Below, in pieces: positions 1-5,710 of a DNA stretch of 5,710 nt (its first letter is position 1; each line of letters opens with the position of its first letter). A program made the translations under genes and the position numbers. The stretch is from a virus (lineage: Duplodnaviria > Heunggongvirae > Uroviricota > Caudoviricetes): positions 1 through 5,710 of IMG/VR virus record IMGVR_UViG_2651869755_000011, one strand, 5' to 3'. Under the pieces are notes generated by a model. The model was not told the DNA's origin. It did no database searches and was given only the letters and a program-made list of their open reading frames with translations.

Positions 1-157
1 TATTGCTTACGCCAGAGAAATAACTGGCTGGCTGCTACACCATGTTGCCGGGCAACGAGGGAGACCGTCATCCCTGGTTCAAAGCTCTGCTGAACAATTG
101 CGATCTTTTCCTGTGTGGTACGCCGTCTGCGTTTCTCCGGTCCTAAGACATCAATCA
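1..157 (-). CDS. insC: IS2 OrfA (InsC) transposase regulator, 5' partial (first ~52 codons; rest is outside the window)
   Basis: Minus-strand translation from the ATG at 155-157 gives [52 protein letters not shown], matching the IS2 OrfA N-terminus as I recall it. It is absent from the ORF track because it runs off the window edge. Confidence 0.85.
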
Positions 158-249
158 TCTGCTCTCCAATGACTAGTCTAAAAACTAGTATTAAGACTAT
201 CACTTAAATAAGTGATATTGGTTGTCTGGTGATTCAGGGGGCCAGTCTA
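1..249 (-). mobile_element. IS2 (IS3 family), left end only; the element continues beyond the window start and its terminus is at 249
   Basis: The reverse complement of 231-249 reads TAGACTGGCCCCCTGAATC, which I recognise as the IS2 left terminus. An IS2 OrfA reading frame opens at the minus-strand ATG at 155-157. Identity is from memory of the IS2 sequence, not a search. Confidence 0.9.
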
Positions 250-250
250 G

Positions 251-346
251 AAGTTTTCTAATGGTATTTTGCGTCGTATAGAGAGAGCCGGACCTGATGA
301 TGACTTTTCTTTAGTAAGTATAATGGTGCGTGTGACGTCAGATTAG
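251..346 (+). pseudogene. Orphan 3' coding remnant abutting the IS2 junction; possibly the C-terminus of a gene split by IS2 (by position a candidate late antiterminator Q, unverified)
   Basis: An open frame runs from the IS2 junction (the in-frame TAG at 248-250 lies across the IS terminus) to TAG at 344-346 and encodes KFSNGILRRIERAGPDDDFSLVSIMVRVTSD. It ends immediately before a promoter-like element, which is the Q / pR' arrangement in lambdoid phages. I do not recognise the peptide. Confidence 0.25.
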
Positions 347-376
347 TTGTATAAACCCAGTAGGGAATGCTAATTT
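347..376 (+). promoter_or_regulatory. Candidate sigma70 promoter (pR'-like by position): -35 TTGTAT (347-352), 18-nt spacer, extended -10 TGcTAATTT (368-376)
   Basis: Motifs read directly from the sequence. A second candidate lies just upstream (perfect TATAAT at 319-324). No experimental support. Confidence 0.3.
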
Positions 377-415
377 CCCATACTACAGAGTAAAGAAAAA
401 CTTAATTTTAATGTG

Positions 416-442
416 AAAAGGCTGCTATCAGGCGGCCTTTTT
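416..442 (+). terminator. Putative intrinsic terminator (tR'-like by position)
   Basis: Stem GGCTGC (420-425) pairs with GCGGCC (432-437), including one G-U pair, around a 6-nt loop, followed by TTTTT (438-442) and preceded by an A-run. Confidence 0.45.
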
Positions 443-450
443 ATGTCTGA

Positions 451-783
451 AAAGCTGTGCAGTACGTTAAACACGCTTGTGGTTGTGAATGCCGACTGCG
501 GCGGTATTTTGGCGTGACAGCGCAGGTGCCGTATACCGATGTCTGGACGCATAAACCGGTGCAGTTCTATCCCGGGAAACATCCGTGCGAAAAACCGGCA
601 GAAATGCTGCAGCAGATAATCAGCGCAAGCAGTCGTCCGGGAGACCTGGTTGCAGATTTTTTTATGGGCTCAGGTTCAACGGTAAAAGCGGCACTGGCGC
701 TCGGGCGTCGTGCGATTGGCGTTGAACTGGAGACCGGACGTTTTGAGCAGACAGTCAGGGAAGTTCAGGATTTAATCGTTTGA
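451..783 (+). pseudogene. N6-adenine (N6/N4 family) DNA methyltransferase, C-terminal remnant; the N-terminal catalytic region is missing
   Basis: The 108-aa ORF (457-783, GTG start) contains HPCEKP and DFFMGSGST, which resemble the conserved HPTQKP and AdoMet-binding F-x-G-x-G motifs at the C-terminal end of beta-class amino-methyltransferases. The frame is closed at 448-450 and the 200 bp upstream is noncoding, so no DPPY catalytic motif can be present. Confidence 0.65.
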
Positions 784-832
784 AACGGATGAGATTGCAG
801 AATTAATTACGCACCATTATTATTCTGCTTCC

Positions 833-908
833 GGCCCTTTAGCTCAGTGGTGAGAGCGAGCGACTCATAATCGCCAGGTCGCTGGTTCAAATCCAGCAAG
901 GGCCACCA
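833..908 (+). tRNA. ileZ: tRNA with CAU anticodon, tRNA-Ile2 (lysidine type, AUA decoder) by similarity to E. coli ileX; tRNA-Met cannot be excluded
   Basis: Manual cloverleaf: acceptor GGCCCTT/AAGGGCC, D-stem GCTC/GAGC, anticodon loop CTCATAA (anticodon 866-868), T-arm GCTGG-TTCAAAT-CCAGC, encoded CCA at 906-908. The symbol follows the ileZ-argN-argO cluster described in Stx-type prophages. Confidence 0.85.
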
Positions 909-915
909 TCACATA

Positions 916-992
916 CCGCCATTAGCTCATCAGGAAAGAGCGCCAGCCTTCGAAGCTGGTTGCGCGGAGTTCGGGTCCCCGAAGGCGGTCCA
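916..992 (+). tRNA. argN: tRNA-Arg(UCG)-like, atypical and possibly degenerate
   Basis: Manual fold: perfect 5-bp anticodon stem CCAGC/GCTGG with loop CTTCGAA (anticodon 950-952), canonical U8/A9, D-stem GCTC/GAGC, encoded CCA at 990-992. It also has an A-A mismatch in the acceptor stem, an A-C mismatch in the T-stem and a T-loop of TTCGGGT (G where A58 is normally conserved). Confidence 0.5.
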
Positions 993-1005
993 TTATCTGT
1001 ATCCT

Positions 1006-1082
1006 GCGTTGTTAGCTCAGCCGGACAGAGCAATTGCCTTCTAAGCAATCGGTCACTGGTTCGAATCCAGTACAACGCGCCA
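1006..1082 (+). tRNA. argO: tRNA-Arg(UCU), AGA decoder
   Basis: Manual cloverleaf with perfect acceptor stem GCGTTGT/ACAACGC, D-stem GCTC/GAGC, anticodon stem ATTGC/GCAAT with loop CTTCTAA (anticodon 1040-1042), T-arm ACTGG-TTCGAAT-CCAGT, discriminator G and CCA at 1080-1082. Confidence 0.85.
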
Positions 1083-1097
1083 CACTTATTTTCCCTG

Positions 1098-1121
1098 GCT
1101 CGCTTTTGCGGGCTTTTTTTT
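1098..1121 (+). terminator. Intrinsic terminator directly after the tRNA cluster
   Basis: Stem GCTCGC (1098-1103) pairs with GCGGGC (1108-1113), one G-U pair, loop TTTT, followed by eight T (1114-1121). Confidence 0.6.
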
Positions 1122-1127
1122 AAATGT

Positions 1128-1341
1128 CTCACAATTCAGGCGGTTGACTGTTGTCTGGTTTGCGGGGAGTTTGTTAAAAGAAACTGGCATGGTGAATCCC
1201 CCTGTGCGGAGGGGCAATCAGCGAGTAGGTATATGGGATAATCGCGGATTCAGGTGCTGGTACTGAATTCACCGGGAGGCACCCGGCACCATGCAATGGC
1301 ACATAGCGCCACTCTCCAGCCCCTCTCCGGAGGGGCTTTTC
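1128..1341 (+). repeat. Copy A of a duplicated noncoding module (candidate small-RNA or regulatory unit) ending in an intrinsic terminator
   Basis: Shares ordered blocks with copy B: CTCACAATTCAG, TTGAC(T/A)GTTG, TTTGTTAAAA(G/A)AAA, GCATGGTGAATCCCCCTG(T/A)GCGGAGGGGC, TGAA(T/C)TCACCGGGAGGCACCCGGCACCATG and AGCCCCTCTCCGGAGGGGCTTT. Internal hairpins include CCCCT/AGGGG and CCGGG/CCCGG. Confidence 0.75.
1319..1340 (+). terminator. Intrinsic terminator closing module copy A
   Basis: 7-bp GC-rich stem GCCCCTC (1319-1325) / GAGGGGC (1330-1336), tetraloop TCCG, then TTTT (1337-1340). There is no U-run on the minus strand, so it acts on the plus strand only. Confidence 0.65.
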
Positions 1342-1396
1342 TGTGCCGGATACATCACAGTTTCTGGAACCTTAGGTACTACAGTATCAGTCAGGG

Positions 1397-1405
1397 TGCT
1401 ATATT
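1397..1405 (+). promoter_or_regulatory. Candidate extended -10 promoter (TGcTATATT) for a short transcript ending at the 1532-1558 terminator
   Basis: TG at 1397-1398 and hexamer TATATT at 1400-1405; no convincing -35. About 150 nt downstream is an intrinsic terminator. Confidence 0.3.
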
Positions 1406-1531
1406 TTCAGATGTGATGAAAGCCTGTCAGCAGGCAGGGCGTATCGGAAATGACCCAGTAGAGAAAACGTTGACTCAGATACCGGTGCTGAGTTACCGGG
1501 AAACCGGCATCACATGACCGCTATCCTTCCA

Positions 1532-1558
1532 GGCCCATCCGCTCCGGTGGGCCTTTTT
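1532..1558 (+). terminator. Intrinsic terminator
   Basis: Stem GGCCCA(T)CCG (1532-1541) pairs with CGGTGGGCC (1545-1553), giving 9 bp with one bulged T around loop CTC, followed by TTTTT (1554-1558). Confidence 0.6.
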
Positions 1559-1595
1559 ACTGCAGAAAACAGGTTCCCCGTTAAATGCTATGTTG

Positions 1596-1829
1596 CTCAC
1601 AATTCAGTAAGTTGACAGTTGCCTGTCAGACTGGGCATTTGTTAAAAAAATTTCGCATGGTGAATCCCCCTGAGCGGAGGGGCGACTGGTGACGGTATAA
1701 TCTCTGATTATCAAAACGAGAATGACGCGGGTTTAGTGGCACCGGGCTGAACTCACCGGGAGGCACCCGGCACCATGTGCATGATGATACAGATACGCGG
1801 CTTTAGCCCCTCTCCGGAGGGGCTTTCTT
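1596..1829 (+). repeat. Copy B of the duplicated noncoding module, ending in an intrinsic terminator
   Basis: Same ordered conserved blocks as copy A, with variable sequence between them. It contains a perfect TTGACA (1612-1617) inside the palindrome TGACAG-N4-CTGTCA (1613-1628) and a perfect TATAAT (1696-1701). Confidence 0.75.
1806..1829 (+). terminator. Intrinsic terminator closing module copy B
   Basis: Stem GCCCCTC (1806-1812) / GAGGGGC (1817-1823), loop TCCG, then TTTCTT. Confidence 0.6.
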
Positions 1830-1835
1830 ATGGAC

Positions 1836-1864
1836 AAAAAAAGCCCGCGCTGGGAGACGCGGGC
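1836..1864 (-). terminator. Minus-strand intrinsic terminator, convergent with the copy-B terminator
   Basis: 7-bp stem GCCCGCG (1843-1849) / CGCGGGC (1858-1864) with an 8-nt loop. On the minus strand the hairpin is followed by seven U (plus-strand A-run 1836-1842); there is no U-run on the plus side. Confidence 0.5.
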
Positions 1865-1932
1865 GGCAAGGAATAAACAATAAAACGTGAAGTAATATTT
1901 CAGCTGGCGAATAATACCCCATAGTAATCACT

Positions 1933-1955
1933 CTGCGCAACTGCGCGGTCTTTTT
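1933..1955 (+). terminator. Intrinsic terminator-like hairpin upstream of the esterase gene
   Basis: Stem CTGCGC (1933-1938) / GCGCGG (1943-1948) with one G-U pair, loop AACT, followed by TCTTTTT (1949-1955). Confidence 0.45.
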
Positions 1956-2057
1956 CGAATTGCGGGCTGTAGTCTCCCTTCTGCCATTGTCCTGTAACTT
2001 CCGGACTTCAGCCTGCTCCTTATCTGACTCACAACATTATCCCGCCCGGGAGGATTC

Positions 2058-3911
2058 ATGGCATTTAAACACTATGACGTGGTCAGGGCGGCATCGCCGT
2101 CAGACCTTGCGAAACGACTGACACAAAAACTGAAGGAGGGCTGGCAGCCGTTTGGTAGTCCGGTGGCCATAACCCCTTATACCCTGATGCAGGCGATTGC
2201 AGCAGAAGGTGATGTGGTCGTCAGTGGTGCAACTGAGCCGGAGTGGTACTACGTCATCGTACTGGCCGGGCAATCCAATGCCATGGCTTACGGTGAAGGG
2301 CTTCCGCTTCCGGATTCATACGATGCGCCCCATCCGCGCATTAAGCAACTGGCCCGTCGTAACACAGTGACTCCCGGTGGTGAAGTATGCGTATTTAACG
2401 ACATCATTCCTGCTGACCATTGTCTGCATGATGTTCAGGATATGAGTACGATTAACCATCCCCGGGCTGACCTGAGCAAAGGGCAGTACGGCTGTGTCGG
2501 ACAGGGCTTACATATTGCCAAAAAACTGCTTCCGTATATCCCTAATAATGCGGGGATCCTGCTGGTACCATGCTGTCGTGGTGGTTCGGCATTCACCCAG
2601 GGCACGGAGGGGACATTCAGCGAGTCCACGGGAGCCAGTCAGGATTCGGCTCGCTGGGGAGTGGGTAAGCCGTTATATCAGGATCTGCTTTTCCGCACGA
2701 AGGCAGCATTGCAGAAAAACCCGAAAAACGTTTTGCTGGCGATATGCTGGATGCAGGGGGAATTCGATATGACGAATGCCAGTTACGCCCAGCAGCCAGC
2801 AGCATTTCTTGCAATGGTACAGCAGTTCCGTGCTGACCTTGCCGGGCTGGCAGCGCAGTGTCACGGTGGAAGTCCGGCATCAGTCCCCTGGATTTGTGGC
2901 GACACGACATACGCGTGGAAACAAGAACACGGTACGCAATATGAAGTGGTATATGGTGCATATAAAGGTAAAGAATCCCAGCAGATTTATTTTGTTCCCT
3001 TTATGACCGATGGTAGCGGAGTTAATACACCGACAAACAACCCGTCAGAAGATCCTGATATTGTCGGGTCTGGTTATTACGGTTCGGCATCCCGAACGAA
3101 CAAAAACTGGGTATCATCAAATCGCCCGACGCATTTCAGCTCATGGGCGCGTCGTGGCATTATTCCCGATCGTATGGCAACTGCTATTCTGAACGTAGCC
3201 GGTCGCACCTTAGCCTTCATTAGTGGTAAGGCACCGGAAATCAAACTCTCGCCCGGCGGCGACACGCCATCGGGGCCGTCTGAAGATGCATCCATACGCA
3301 CAATCTCCCTGTTGCCGACAGCCGGAGACGCTGCTGCGCAGGGCTGGAGCATTAAGAATGGCGGAATTCAGTTGTCAGATGGTGTATTTAAGATCACCAA
3401 GCAGAGCAATAAAGCCTGGTCCCTGACGCGCCCGGTGGATGACGCAGTCTCCCTGCTGACACGGGGTGGCAGACTGAGCTGTAAGTTTCGACTGTCAGGC
3501 GCACTGACCAACAATCAGTTCGGTCTGGGAATTTATCTGTATACCGATGTAGCGTTACCTGACGTCGTGGCGATGACCGGGACTGGTAACCCGTTCCTGA
3601 TGTCGTTCTTCACCCAGACCACAGACGGCAAACTGAATCTGATGCATCACAAGAAAGCAGGAAACACAAAGTTGGGCGAGTTCGGGAATTACAGTAACGA
3701 CTGGCAGACGCTGGAGCTGGTGTTCACCGCCGGCAGTGCCACGGTTACTCCGAAACTGAATGGAGTGGCTGGCCCGGCATTCCAGGTCATAAAAGACAGT
3801 CTGACACTGGGGCTGAATGCGCTGACGCTGACGGATATTACCAAAAATGCAGCGTATGGCGTTGAGATAGAAAGTCTGGTGCTGGAGATAAATGCACCGG
3901 CATCATCATAA
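2058..3911 (+). CDS. nanS-p: Prophage-encoded sialate (N-acetylneuraminate) O-acetylesterase, NanS-p-like: N-terminal DUF1737-like region, SGNH/SASA esterase core, long C-terminal domain of unclear function
   Basis: 617-aa ORF with SD GGGAGG 7 nt upstream of the ATG. The N-terminus MAFKHYDVVRAASPSDLAKRLTQKLKEGWQPFGSPV and the esterase block I motif VIVLAGQSNAMAYGEG (putative catalytic Ser73) match the NanS-p family of EHEC prophages as I know it. The position after the tRNA cluster and before the holin is typical. Confidence 0.88.
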   Translation: MAFKHYDVVRAASPSDLAKRLTQKLKEGWQPFGSPVAITPYTLMQAIAAEGDVVVSGATEPEWYYVIVLAGQSNAMAYGEGLPLPDSYDAPHPRIKQLARRNTVTPGGEVCVFNDIIPADHCLHDVQDMSTINHPRADLSKGQYGCVGQGLHIAKKLLPYIPNNAGILLVPCCRGGSAFTQGTEGTFSESTGASQDSARWGVGKPLYQDLLFRTKAALQKNPKNVLLAICWMQGEFDMTNASYAQQPAAFLAMVQQFRADLAGLAAQCHGGSPASVPWICGDTTYAWKQEHGTQYEVVYGAYKGKESQQIYFVPFMTDGSGVNTPTNNPSEDPDIVGSGYYGSASRTNKNWVSSNRPTHFSSWARRGIIPDRMATAILNVAGRTLAFISGKAPEIKLSPGGDTPSGPSEDASIRTISLLPTAGDAAAQGWSIKNGGIQLSDGVFKITKQSNKAWSLTRPVDDAVSLLTRGGRLSCKFRLSGALTNNQFGLGIYLYTDVALPDVVAMTGTGNPFLMSFFTQTTDGKLNLMHHKKAGNTKLGEFGNYSNDWQTLELVFTAGSATVTPKLNGVAGPAFQVIKDSLTLGLNALTLTDITKNAAYGVEIESLVLEINAPASS

Positions 3912-3996
3912 AAAGTGAGCCAGCCAAATGGAAGGTATCGTTAAACTCACCGGTAGTGTCAGTGGGTCGTCTGAGATGCCTGCATGAGTTATCAGA

Positions 3997-4026
3997 GCCA
4001 TCAGTACTTAACTGGTGGCTTTTTTT
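3997..4026 (+). terminator. Intrinsic terminator between the esterase gene and the holin
   Basis: 8-bp stem GCCATCAG (3997-4004) / CTGGTGGC (4012-4019) with one G-U pair, 7-nt loop, followed by TTTTTTT (4020-4026). Confidence 0.5.
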
Positions 4027-4061
4027 ATTGTTGTCAGCTTCCGGATAACGGGAGACGGGGT

Positions 4062-4277
4062 ATGTACCAGATGGAAAAAATCACAACAGGTGTGTCATAC
4101 ACCACGTCAGCGGTGGGAACGGGCTACTGGTTCCTGCAGTTGCTGGACAGGGTTTCCCCGTCTCAGTGGGCGGCAATAGGCGTGCTGGGGAGTCTGCTGT
4201 TTGGGCTGCTGACATATCTGACTAACCTGTATTTCAAAATCAGAGAGGACCGTCGTAAGGCTGCACGGGGAGAGTAA
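4062..4277 (+). CDS. S: Class II holin (phage 21 S-type pinholin), 71 aa, with dual-start motif MYQM (Met1 at 4062, Met4 at 4071)
   Basis: [71 protein letters not shown] closely resembles the phage 21 S protein as I recall it, with two hydrophobic segments and a charged C-terminus. SD GGAGACGGGG lies upstream. The ORF-track start at 3984 would add an N-terminal extension that overlaps the upstream terminator and has no RBS. Confidence 0.85.
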
Positions 4278-4281
4278 TTCA

Positions 4282-4626
4282 ATGACTCAAAACTATAAAC
4301 TGATTGTGAAAGGGATCCGCAATTTTGAGAATAAAGTTACGGTAACTTTAGCGTTACGGGACAAAAAACGCTTTGACGGTGAAATTTTTGACCTGGACAT
4401 CTCGCTGGACCGTGTTGAAGGTGCCGCGCTGGAGTTTTATGAGGCAGCAGCCAGAAGGAGCATCAGACAGGTCTTCCTGGATGTTGCTGCCGGGTTATGT
4501 GAAGGGGATGAGCAGTCGCCGGAAAAGCGCCCCGTAATTTTAGAGGCGCAGGATGTGTTGATAACCTACAGAGGAAAACTACCGGGAATAATTACGGGTT
4601 CTCTGAAGAGTCCGCCGAAATGGTAA
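4282..4626 (+). CDS. Hypothetical 114-aa protein inserted between holin and endolysin (function unknown; possibly comparable to the uncharacterised genes found between S and R in some E. coli prophages)
   Basis: ATG at 4282 is 4 nt after the holin stop, with SD GGGGAGAG at 4267-4274, so it is translationally coupled to the holin. The sequence looks like ordinary coding sequence. I do not recognise the protein. Confidence 0.6.
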   Translation: MTQNYKLIVKGIRNFENKVTVTLALRDKKRFDGEIFDLDISLDRVEGAALEFYEAAARRSIRQVFLDVAAGLCEGDEQSPEKRPVILEAQDVLITYRGKLPGIITGSLKSPPKW

Positions 4627-4864
4627 TTTTACCAGCATATTTTTCATCCAGTAATACAGCAAGCCGCCTGAAAGAGTCTTGTTGTTCCTGAGACCATTTG
4701 GGATTGCATGATTCAAACTGGATTGATGCCAGCGTTGATTGCATCTGTTCCCTTGGAATTGAGAATGCCAGATATGAGAAGGCGACGGTAAGGGTATTCA
4801 CGTCTTCCCGAAGCCTGGAAATGCTGTCGAGCAACTCCTGTAGAGAAATGGTGTTATTGTCCAT
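4592..4864 (-). CDS. Possible 90-aa hypothetical protein on the opposite strand, convergent with and overlapping the 3' end of the 114-aa ORF by 35 nt
   Basis: Minus-strand ATG (4862-4864) is preceded by SD GAGGA at 7-nt spacing. A promoter-like pair lies upstream on the minus strand (TTGCCT, 19-nt spacer, TACAAT). It fills most of an otherwise unexplained 343-bp gap between ORF114 and the endolysin. No recognisable homology. Confidence 0.4.
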   Translation of the reverse strand: MDNNTISLQELLDSISRLREDVNTLTVAFSYLAFSIPREQMQSTLASIQFESCNPKWSQEQQDSFRRLAVLLDEKYAGKITISADSSENP

Positions 4865-4896
4865 AAATAATCCTCATGATTGTATTGACCTGTTAG

Positions 4897-4916
4897 CAGC
4901 CTGAGGCAACAGGCTG
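4897..4916. promoter_or_regulatory. Perfect 7-bp inverted repeat CAGCCTG-N6-CAGGCTG between the putative minus-strand gene and the endolysin; candidate operator
   Basis: Read directly. There is no U-run on either side, so it is unlikely to be a terminator. It overlaps the -35/spacer of the putative minus-strand promoter. Confidence 0.3.
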
Positions 4917-4969
4917 GAACTGATAAACATATCCAGGGCTCAGAAACCGATAAATCCTGATAAATATCC

Positions 4970-5623
4970 ATGAACGCAAAAATCAGATACGGCCTGTCGG
5001 CTGCCGTTCTGGCGCTGATTGCCGCTGGTGCGCCTGACATTCTCGACCAGTTTCTGGATGAAAAGGAAGGTAACCACACCACGGCATACCGTGATGGCGC
5101 GGGTATCTGGACCATCTGCCGCGGTGCCATCCTGGTGGATGGCAAACCTGTCGTTCCGGGCATGAAGTTGTCGAAGGAAAAATGCGACCGGGTTAACGCC
5201 ATTGAGCGTGATAAGGCGCTGGCATGGGTGGAGAAAAACATCAAAGTGCCATTGACCGAACCCCAGAAAGCGGGGATCGCGTCATTCTGTCCGTACAACA
5301 TTGGTCCCGGTAAGTGTTTCCCGTCGACGTTTTACAGACGAATTAATGCTGGCGATCGCAGGGGAGCATGTGAGGCGATTCGCTGGTGGATTAAGGACGG
5401 TGGCAGAGACTGCCGTATTCGTTCAAATAACTGCTATGGACAGGTCTCACGGCGTGACCAGGTGAACCGCCCCGGGTTTCCTGGAGAGTATTTTATCTGT
5501 GAACTCAGGCTGCCAGATCATCGTTTCCGATGGAAGCATAATAAGCTTTTTCTGCTTCTGCCGGAGGAGTATGGCCCAGCCTTTCCAGCAATCGTCGATT
5601 GTTATACCAGTCCACCCACGTGA
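4970..5623 (+). CDS. R: SAR-type phage endolysin (T4-lysozyme-like muramidase, phage 21 R type), 3' end disrupted by IS insertion: codons 1-164 (4970-5461) are native, the last 53 codons are IS-derived
   Basis: N-terminal signal-anchor-release segment MNAKIRYGLSAAVLALIAAGAP, catalytic E33/D42/T48 spacing (E-8x-D-5x-T) and overall similarity to phage 21 R. The frame runs straight from ...YGQVSRRDQ into the IS terminus TGAACCGCCCC at 5463. Family members are about 165-185 aa, so roughly 10-15 native C-terminal residues appear to be replaced. Confidence 0.8.
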   Translation: MNAKIRYGLSAAVLALIAAGAPDILDQFLDEKEGNHTTAYRDGAGIWTICRGAILVDGKPVVPGMKLSKEKCDRVNAIERDKALAWVEKNIKVPLTEPQKAGIASFCPYNIGPGKCFPSTFYRRINAGDRRGACEAIRWWIKDGGRDCRIRSNNCYGQVSRRDQVNRPGFPGEYFICELRLPDHRFRWKHNKLFLLLPEEYGPAFPAIVDCYTSPPT

Positions 5624-5710
5624 GTGTGGCCAGTTCCACTTCTGCACGGTTTTTCCAGCTCTTACGGTGTATTACCTCCGCTTTGTAAAGACCATTGATG
5701 CTCTCCGCCA
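5463..5710 (-). mobile_element. IS629/IS1203-like IS3-family element, right end only (continues beyond the window end), inserted into the endolysin gene
   Basis: Terminal inverted repeat TGAACCGCCCCGGGTTTCCTGGAGAGT at 5463-5489. The minus strand encodes the C-terminus of an IS3-family OrfB transposase ending LERLGHTPPAEAEKAYYASIGNDDLAA, which I recognise as IS629-like from memory. Confidence 0.85.
5505..5710 (-). CDS. IS3-family transposase OrfB, C-terminal fragment (5' part outside the window)
   Basis: Minus-strand translation AESINGLYKAEVIHRKSWKNRAEVELATLTWVDWYNNRRLLERLGHTPPAEAEKAYYASIGNDDLAA with stop codon at 5505-5507 (TGA on the minus strand). Confidence 0.85.
   Translation of the reverse strand, partial: AESINGLYKAEVIHRKSWKNRAEVELATLTWVDWYNNRRLLERLGHTPPAEAEKAYYASIGNDDLAA

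Follow-up and report, generated by a model that had tools for sequence, protein, structure and literature searches.

A prophage ileZ-argN-argO cluster in which the middle gene, tRNA-Arg(UCG), appears to be eroding between two conserved tRNA genes

Introduction

Which tRNA genes does a temperate phage keep, and is a tRNA gene with visible structural defects still a working gene? Both questions are raised by three tRNA genes that lie side by side in the viral record IMGVR_UViG_2651869755_000011 (Caudoviricetes). The stretch of DNA analysed here, hereafter called the window, comprises 5,710 nt (positions 1 to 5,710 of that record). A sequence-only reading of the window had proposed a prophage tRNA cluster serving rare codons, with an atypical and possibly decaying tRNA-Arg(UCG) as its middle member.

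The cluster as such is not new. The ileZ, argN and argO genes of the Stx2 phage 933W and its relatives were first described in the late 1990s and have been textbook material since, and the trio is annotated in thousands of genomes. The same logic has been proposed for the tRNA sets of the virulent phages T4 and T5, in which the tRNAs match codons that the phage over-uses relative to its host; the set studied here differs in belonging to a temperate phage, in comprising three genes only, and in that one of the three is apparently being lost. The new part of the present work is a comparison of 91 related loci, in which the fate of each of the three genes can be followed.

Results

Identity and position of the tRNA cluster

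ARAGORN and Rfam (family RF00005) both recovered the three tRNAs. The coordinates and the anticodons CAU, UCG and UCU given by the sequence-only reading were borne out by ARAGORN, with all three genes on the plus strand. The features of the cluster are as follows:

833 to 908, plus strand: ileZ, tRNA of the Ile2 type, anticodon CAU, encoded CCA (ARAGORN; Rfam 72.5 bits)
909 to 915, plus strand: spacer between ileZ and argN, 7 nt (from the sequence; 7 or 9 nt among the loci)
916 to 992, plus strand: argN, tRNA-Arg(UCG), derived allele with A6·A67, A52·C62 and G58 (ARAGORN; Rfam 43.4 bits)
993 to 1005, plus strand: spacer between argN and argO, 13 nt (from the sequence; nucleotide diversity 0.19 among 61 loci)
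1006 to 1082, plus strand: argO, tRNA-Arg(UCU) for AGA and AGG, encoded CCA (ARAGORN; Rfam 70.1 bits)
1097 to 1122, plus strand: terminator-like hairpin GGCTCGC-TTTT-GCGGGCT followed by a T run (consensus scan; predicted function)

The Rfam scores of ileZ, argN and argO are all above the gathering score of 29 bits (E-values of 5.6e-15, 5.8e-07 and 2.7e-14, respectively), and the three are thus real tRNAs and not chance matches.

Positions 700-1200 of the window are matched by 297 phage records, mostly of Stx2-converting phages, and the annotation under these matches reads ileZ, argN and argO, or tRNA-Ile/Met, Arg and Arg. The same region is matched by 3,195 of 5,426 complete E. coli genomes, many of them at 100% identity. 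In a scan of one genome per species, the trio was confined to Escherichia and Shigella, if contigs that are probably mis-binned are set aside. The window trio is the ileZ-argN-argO cluster of the Stx-type lambdoid prophages of these two genera, as annotated in Stx2 phages, and the assignment to a prophage is upheld by its place in the late region. Order and strand of the three genes are the same in the Stx-phage clusters (GenBank AP012536 and AM072972), which are likewise found downstream of Q and a DNA methylase gene. In Stx2a_1447 the trio sits between the DNA methylase gene and stx2A. Both ileZ and argO are 100% identical across the window, Stx2a_1447 and Nil3, and the terminator-like hairpin 3' of argO is conserved in all three; argN, by comparison, is identical at only 70 of 77 positions between the window and Stx2a_1447. 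Where Stx2 phages carry stx2AB, the window continues with STnc100-like repeats and nanS-p.

The chromosome of E. coli VR50 is 100% identical to the window over positions 700-1200. Upstream of the trio it carries, in this order, Q, a Ser/Thr kinase, a PP2C phosphatase and a truncated methylase, and downstream a SASA-family esterase (nanS-p), a holin, YdfR and a lysozyme. Pfam supports the neighbours of the trio within the window itself, where nanS-p, the holin and the lysozyme lie downstream. The cluster thus has Q upstream in close relatives and nanS-p with the lysis genes downstream, as expected of a late-region position. A sequence scan between positions 200 and 1400 found no sigma-70-like promoter, a result that neither shows nor excludes a local one. 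Together with the late position, this fits, although it does not prove, transcription from a Q-dependent late promoter.

The flanking genes ileZ and argO

The sequence-only reading had taken the tRNA with anticodon CAU to be of the Ile2 type, and its comparison with the host gene agrees. By its sequence, ileZ is of the Ile2 type, a decoder of AUA, and not a tRNA-Met, because it is identical to host ileX at 68 of 76 positions and carries the pairs C4-G69 and C5-G68; PGAP labels it tRNA-Ile. The host gene (VR50 copy) has the same CUCAUAA anticodon loop and the same two acceptor-stem pairs. The product of ileZ would read AUA after lysidine modification. The prophage-borne gene differs from host ileX in having A27·C43 in place of G27·U43 (window positions 859 and 875, at the top of the anticodon stem). 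As this opposition is invariant in 91 of 91 loci, it is a fixed feature of ileZ and not damage.

The argO gene of the window forms a cloverleaf with no defects. Among the 91 loci, ileZ is defect-free in 89 and argO in 79, and six loci carry a true compensatory double change in argO (C51G/G63C).

Structure of argN in the window

The two stem mismatches and the G at position 58 that had been noted in the middle tRNA are confirmed: cmscan marks exactly two non-standard pairs, and the base-by-base layout agrees. These are A6·A67 in the acceptor stem and A52·C62 in the T stem, while the other 19 of the 21 pairs are standard or G·U. The T loop, UUCGGGU, has G instead of A at position 58, with the rest of the conserved T-loop set and the G53-C61 pair present. 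Among the conserved positions, argN keeps U8, A14, G18, G19, A21, U33, G53, U54, U55, C56 and C61.

The E. coli arginyl-tRNA synthetase (ArgRS) recognises A20, C35, G or U at position 36 and a purine at position 73, the last being a minor element. The D loop of argN, AUCAGGAAA, contains A20, the UCG anticodon supplies C35 and G36, and the 3' CCA is encoded. Position 73 is U instead of a purine, in the window as well as in all 34 full-length alleles, and C1-G72 is the first pair in every argN allele. Part of the atypical look of argN (C1-G72 and U73) is therefore a property of the whole family, not of this copy alone.

A normal score in another fold would have refuted the sequence-only reading. 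The window argN has an unchanged fold, and its 43.4 bits lie 12.5 bits below the canonical argN alleles. The minimum free energy (MFE) structure of the window argN is not a cloverleaf (-27.0 versus -26.4 kcal/mol for the cloverleaf), and G58 together with A67 creates an alternative UUCGG/CCGAA hairpin. MFE folding was given no weight as evidence of decay, since neither ileZ nor argO, both of them intact, has a cloverleaf as its MFE fold.

Variation of argN among 91 related loci

A 24-mer that is invariant in ileZ served as the anchor for collecting loci from IMG/VR, which made the sampling independent of the state of the middle slot, and 91 loci were kept in which ileZ and argO flank a homologous middle element. 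The three genes were compared after gene-by-gene semi-global extraction. This replaced a multiple alignment of the whole trio, which inflated the diversity of argO and misaligned loci with other downstream tRNAs. The 91 loci are related and recombining, and counts of loci are not counts of independent events. With this reservation, the argN slot was found in the following states:

Perfect cloverleaf (17 alleles, varying only in loop, variable-region and G·U positions): 33 of 91 loci
One defect: 9 of 91 loci
Window-type triple defect: 15 of 91 loci
Four to seven defects: 5 of 91 loci
Length changes (indel, rearranged or deleted): 29 of 91 loci

The length-changed group includes an 80/81-nt allele in which the anticodon arm is replaced (24 loci), a 66-nt deletion (3 loci), a 76-nt allele lacking one T-stem base (1 locus) and a shortened allele with a UUU anticodon (2 loci).

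With 44 alleles in 91 loci, argN is the most polymorphic of the three genes. It is defect-free in 33 of 91 loci against 79 of 91 for argO (Fisher p 1.6e-12 by locus, the loci being related). Counted by allele, the contrast is weaker but in the same direction, with 17 of 44 argN alleles and 18 of 25 argO alleles intact (p 0.012). Over the 61-62 loci with a full-length 77-nt argN, nucleotide diversity is 0.005 in ileZ, 0.015 in argO, 0.072 in argN, 0.19 in the spacer and about 0.3 in the flanks. The adjacent spacer thus evolves about 2.7 times as fast as argN, which indicates that some constraint on argN remains.

The alleles form a graded series. The allele of Stx2a_1447 (933W-type), from which the window argN differs at 7 of 77 sites, has 21 of 21 pairs standard and a T loop UUCGAGC with A58. 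The allele of Nil3 is intermediate, with A52·C62 as its single defect. Derivatives of the window allele show further damage, namely T10·C25, A50·C64 and a change of CCA to TCA. No compensated stem change was found in argN among the sampled alleles of the 91 loci. The Rfam scores follow the same series:

Canonical argN: 55.9-56.0 bits
argN with G58 only: 54.0 bits
argN with A52·C62 only (Nil3): 50.4 bits
Window argN: 43.4 bits
Six-defect argN allele: 26.4 bits, below the threshold of 29
80-nt and 66-nt relics: no match

A total of 230 E. coli records carry the window allele (at least 99% identity) and label it tRNA-Arg; ATCC 11775, VR50 and 042 are examples of strains that have precisely this allele. 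It was found in no deposited phage genome, the best match there being 92.8%. The suggestion that the middle tRNA is possibly decaying thus gains support from a series that runs from intact to destroyed over the 91 loci, between neighbours that are near-invariant.

The rearranged 80-nt allele and other relatives of argN

The 80-nt allele, which has no anticodon loop, lies unannotated in 1,863 of 5,426 complete E. coli genomes. It also occurs in deposited phage genomes (for example mEp460_ev081), so that argN looks dispensable for the phage. In this allele, exemplified by positions 2718-2797 of locus L014 and with equivalents in L007, L024, L030, L057 and others, the anticodon arm is replaced by unrelated sequence and the T loop reads GCGGGUC; it is called by no detector. 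Its predicted fold is still four-armed. A common G/C polymorphism disrupts the predicted replacement stem and so speaks against a conserved new fold; the length of the T loop varies. An origin of the rearranged alleles as integration scars was considered and rejected; the replacement is internal, in the anticodon arm, and not at the 3' end of the gene.

Genes with the acceptor stem, D arm and 3' end of argN, and with other anticodons, were seen in L124 and L127 (species scan) and in L008, L045-L047, L062, L016, L069 and L031. The relative with a UUU anticodon has C at position 33 and an A51·C63 mismatch, and ARAGORN calls it tRNA-Lys. A 77-nt form of it heads an ileZ-Lys-Thr-Gly cluster in at least 12 loci. 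L016 and L069 have a 76-nt form in the slot between ileZ and argO; in L016, the one of these two that was scanned, Rfam gave no tRNA match to it. In L031 an otherwise canonical argN has the anticodon UCU and duplicates the specificity of argO.

Codon usage and the demand for the three tRNAs

Two sets of codons were compared, one from prophage-locus ORFs of 200 aa or longer (106,572 codons) and one from a 50-kb host core region (13,938 codons); frequencies are given per 1000:

ATA: prophage 10.2, host core 4.7, ratio 2.2
AGA: prophage 6.6, host core 1.6, ratio 4.1
AGG: prophage 5.0, host core 1.1, ratio 4.5
CGA: prophage 5.1, host core 3.5, ratio 1.5
CGG: prophage 10.8, host core 5.5, ratio 2.0

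The description of all three tRNAs as rare-codon decoders holds in part. It stands for ATA, AGA and AGG, which are enriched 2.2-4.5 times, and is a weaker label for CGA, enriched 1.5 times only. The rare codons reported early in nanS-p (ORF 2058-3911) are indeed there, with AGG at codon 10, CGA at codon 20 and ATA at codon 38.

In E. coli, AUA, AGA and AGG depend on low-abundance host tRNAs, while CGA is read by tRNA-Arg(ICG), which is abundant and encoded in several copies. We know of no tRNA-Arg(UCG) in the E. coli host. Codon enrichment and host tRNA supply, taken together, indicate that the demand for ileZ and argO is real and that argN is largely redundant.

In neighbouring ORFs of at least 200 aa, CGA amounts to 5.8-6.2 per 1000 in loci whose argN has one defect at most, and to 4.3-4.5 per 1000 in those with a defective or rearranged argN. 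Next to intact and defective argN, the values are 5.9 and 4.4 per 1000, respectively (chi-square p 0.001, uncorrected for shared ancestry).

Discussion

The trio of the window offers a comparison between three tRNA genes that share one place in the genome and have diverged at very different rates. We consider it probable that selection on argN is relaxed and that the window copy is weakened or dead. In the mechanism that we propose, ileZ and argO would be held by strong purifying selection, since they supply decoders for codons that the prophage over-uses (2-4.5 times) and that are scarcely served by the host. The argN product would read CGA, and probably CGG, and so would add a specificity absent from the host; it would nevertheless be dispensable because the abundant host tRNA-Arg(ICG) already reads CGA. 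Being dispensable, the argN slot would have come under relaxed selection, and appears to have been eroding independently in many prophage lineages.

The window allele may then stand partway along this course. A tRNA can still be recognised in it, and the main ArgRS identity elements (A20, C35 and G36) are in place; it has also gained three uncompensated changes that damage its structure, the loss of the 6-67 pair, the loss of the 52-62 pair and A58G, the last of which removes the conserved U54-A58 pair of the T loop. Most likely, its product is poorly folded, poorly processed or poorly charged, or is absent altogether. In the literature searched we found no expression or charging data for ileZ, argN or argO, and a study of tRNAs in EHEC was without the prophage tRNAs.

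Comparison with the tRNA pseudogenes and relics of decaying prophages points the same way, within limits. Like these, the window argN has uncompensated stem breaks and has lost a near-universal T-loop base; it belongs to a gene whose substitution rate is well above that of the neighbouring tRNAs, and related copies have fallen below detection. Unlike them, it remains above the detection thresholds and retains its anticodon loop, identity elements and CCA. Uncompensated damage and a raised substitution rate are thus present and loss of detection is not, and the window argN is at most an early-stage pseudogene.

The main alternative is that the window argN is a fully functional, if non-canonical, tRNA-Arg(UCG) in which the two oppositions and G58 are tolerated, and which is kept for Watson-Crick decoding of CGA, a codon that the host reads by an inefficient I·A wobble. 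We regard this as rather unlikely, though it has a good deal in its favour. The gene scores 43.4 bits against a threshold of 29, is called by ARAGORN as well as Rfam, and in identical E. coli loci is annotated by PGAP as tRNA-Arg with no pseudogene flag. Its A20, C35, G36, U33 and CCA are intact, the diversity of argN is lower than that of the spacer, and prophage ORFs show a modest excess of CGA (1.5 times) and CGG (2.0 times). Moreover, some tRNAs are functional in spite of a single mismatch or an A·C pair. On the other hand, all three changed positions are intact in the 17 canonical alleles and also in the argN-related Lys(UUU)-type gene, and none of the three changes is compensated. The descendants of the allele add further breaks, among them disruption of the D stem and loss of the CCA. 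The frequency of the allele in E. coli (230 records) is no proof of function either, since the non-decoding 80-nt allele is far more prevalent. Finally, the use of CGA is, if anything, lower beside a defective argN, as far as a comparison uncorrected for kinship can tell. These observations favour a weakened or dead gene over a functional variant.

Another explanation would see in the middle element a structure kept for a role other than decoding, either as a structured spacer that guides RNase P or RNase E, or as a tRNA-like regulatory RNA. An acceptor stem, D arm and 3' end like those of argN do lie between ileZ and argO in 89 of the 91 loci, homology to argN persists even where the anticodon arm is gone, and the 80-nt allele folds into four arms. 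We nevertheless hold such a role to be very improbable: 66-nt deletion alleles exist, the replacement stem of the 80-nt allele is interrupted by the polymorphism described above and its T loop differs in length, other tRNAs can fill the slot, as in the Lys-Thr-Gly cluster, and no covariation supports any alternative fold. A bolder form of the idea is that the 80-nt derivative, with a 7-bp hairpin in place of its anticodon arm, was exapted as a tRNA-like RNA (a decoy, a processing element or a regulator), the window allele being a second, independent step away from decoding; this we think highly unlikely.

Diversifying selection for escape from tRNA-targeting nucleases (anticodon nucleases and colicin D-type toxins), an idea known from the general literature on phage tRNAs that evade such nucleases through loop mutations, would account for the high polymorphism of argN and for some anticodon-loop variation (C32U, A37G and G36U, the last giving UCU), but it is scarcely credible here, because the window allele is changed in its acceptor stem, T stem and T loop and not in the anticodon loop where the nucleases act, many alleles without an anticodon arm represent loss and not escape, and the changes bear no signature of a maintained structure.

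If argN is indeed a weakened or dead gene, the trio may serve, on a small scale, as a natural experiment on the usefulness of phage tRNAs. Conservation extends only to the two tRNAs whose codons, AUA and AGA/AGG, are truly limiting in the host, and the third, with a specificity that the host lacks and yet does not seem to need, is apparently being lost repeatedly. There is also a caution for annotation: in many cases the label 'tRNA-Arg' in E. coli genomes may stand for a weakened or dead gene, and one relic goes unannotated although it is very common.

Additional features of the locus

Unlike the Stx-phage clusters, the window combines a truncated methylase with a prophage that is cut by IS elements. 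The prophage is itself defective or decaying, as seen from its IS ends, its truncated methylase and its interrupted lysozyme. Both ends of the window (1-243 and 5466-5710) are multi-copy IS sequence; the left end resembles the terminal ~240 nt of an IS2-like element of the IS3 family on the minus strand, and the right end holds the C-terminus of an IS3-family transposase, also on the minus strand. The lysozyme ORF (4970-5623) runs into the IS after about residue 165. Both IS junctions together were found in no genome of the collection searched, and IS elements interrupt Q in the closest genome. The methylase remnant upstream of ileZ (457-783, plus strand) is the C-terminal third of an N6/N4 DNA methylase, covering profile positions 134-219 of 221 of Pfam PF01555; in identical loci PGAP flags the remnant as a pseudogene.

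Between argO and nanS-p there are three tandem copies of the Rfam sRNA STnc100, all on the plus strand:

1158 to 1348: STnc100 copy, 136.3 bits
1387 to 1560: STnc100 copy, 30.1 bits
1626 to 1835: STnc100 copy, 165.4 bits

Each of the two strong copies ends in a GC-rich hairpin and a T run, and the two are marked by direct repeats of 88 nt (80% identical) and 31 nt. In related loci the STnc100 element likewise follows the tRNAs or stx. Directly after it, AgvB, an anti-sRNA of EHEC, is found in L036 (2840-2901, minus strand, 96.5 bits) and L015 (3051-3110, minus strand, 56.6 bits), and weaker matches to AsxR accompany AgvB in related loci. At the equivalent place in the window (1836-1924, minus strand) there is a weak OmrA-B-like match only (25 bits, E 0.15), and this segment may hold a diverged or different sRNA.
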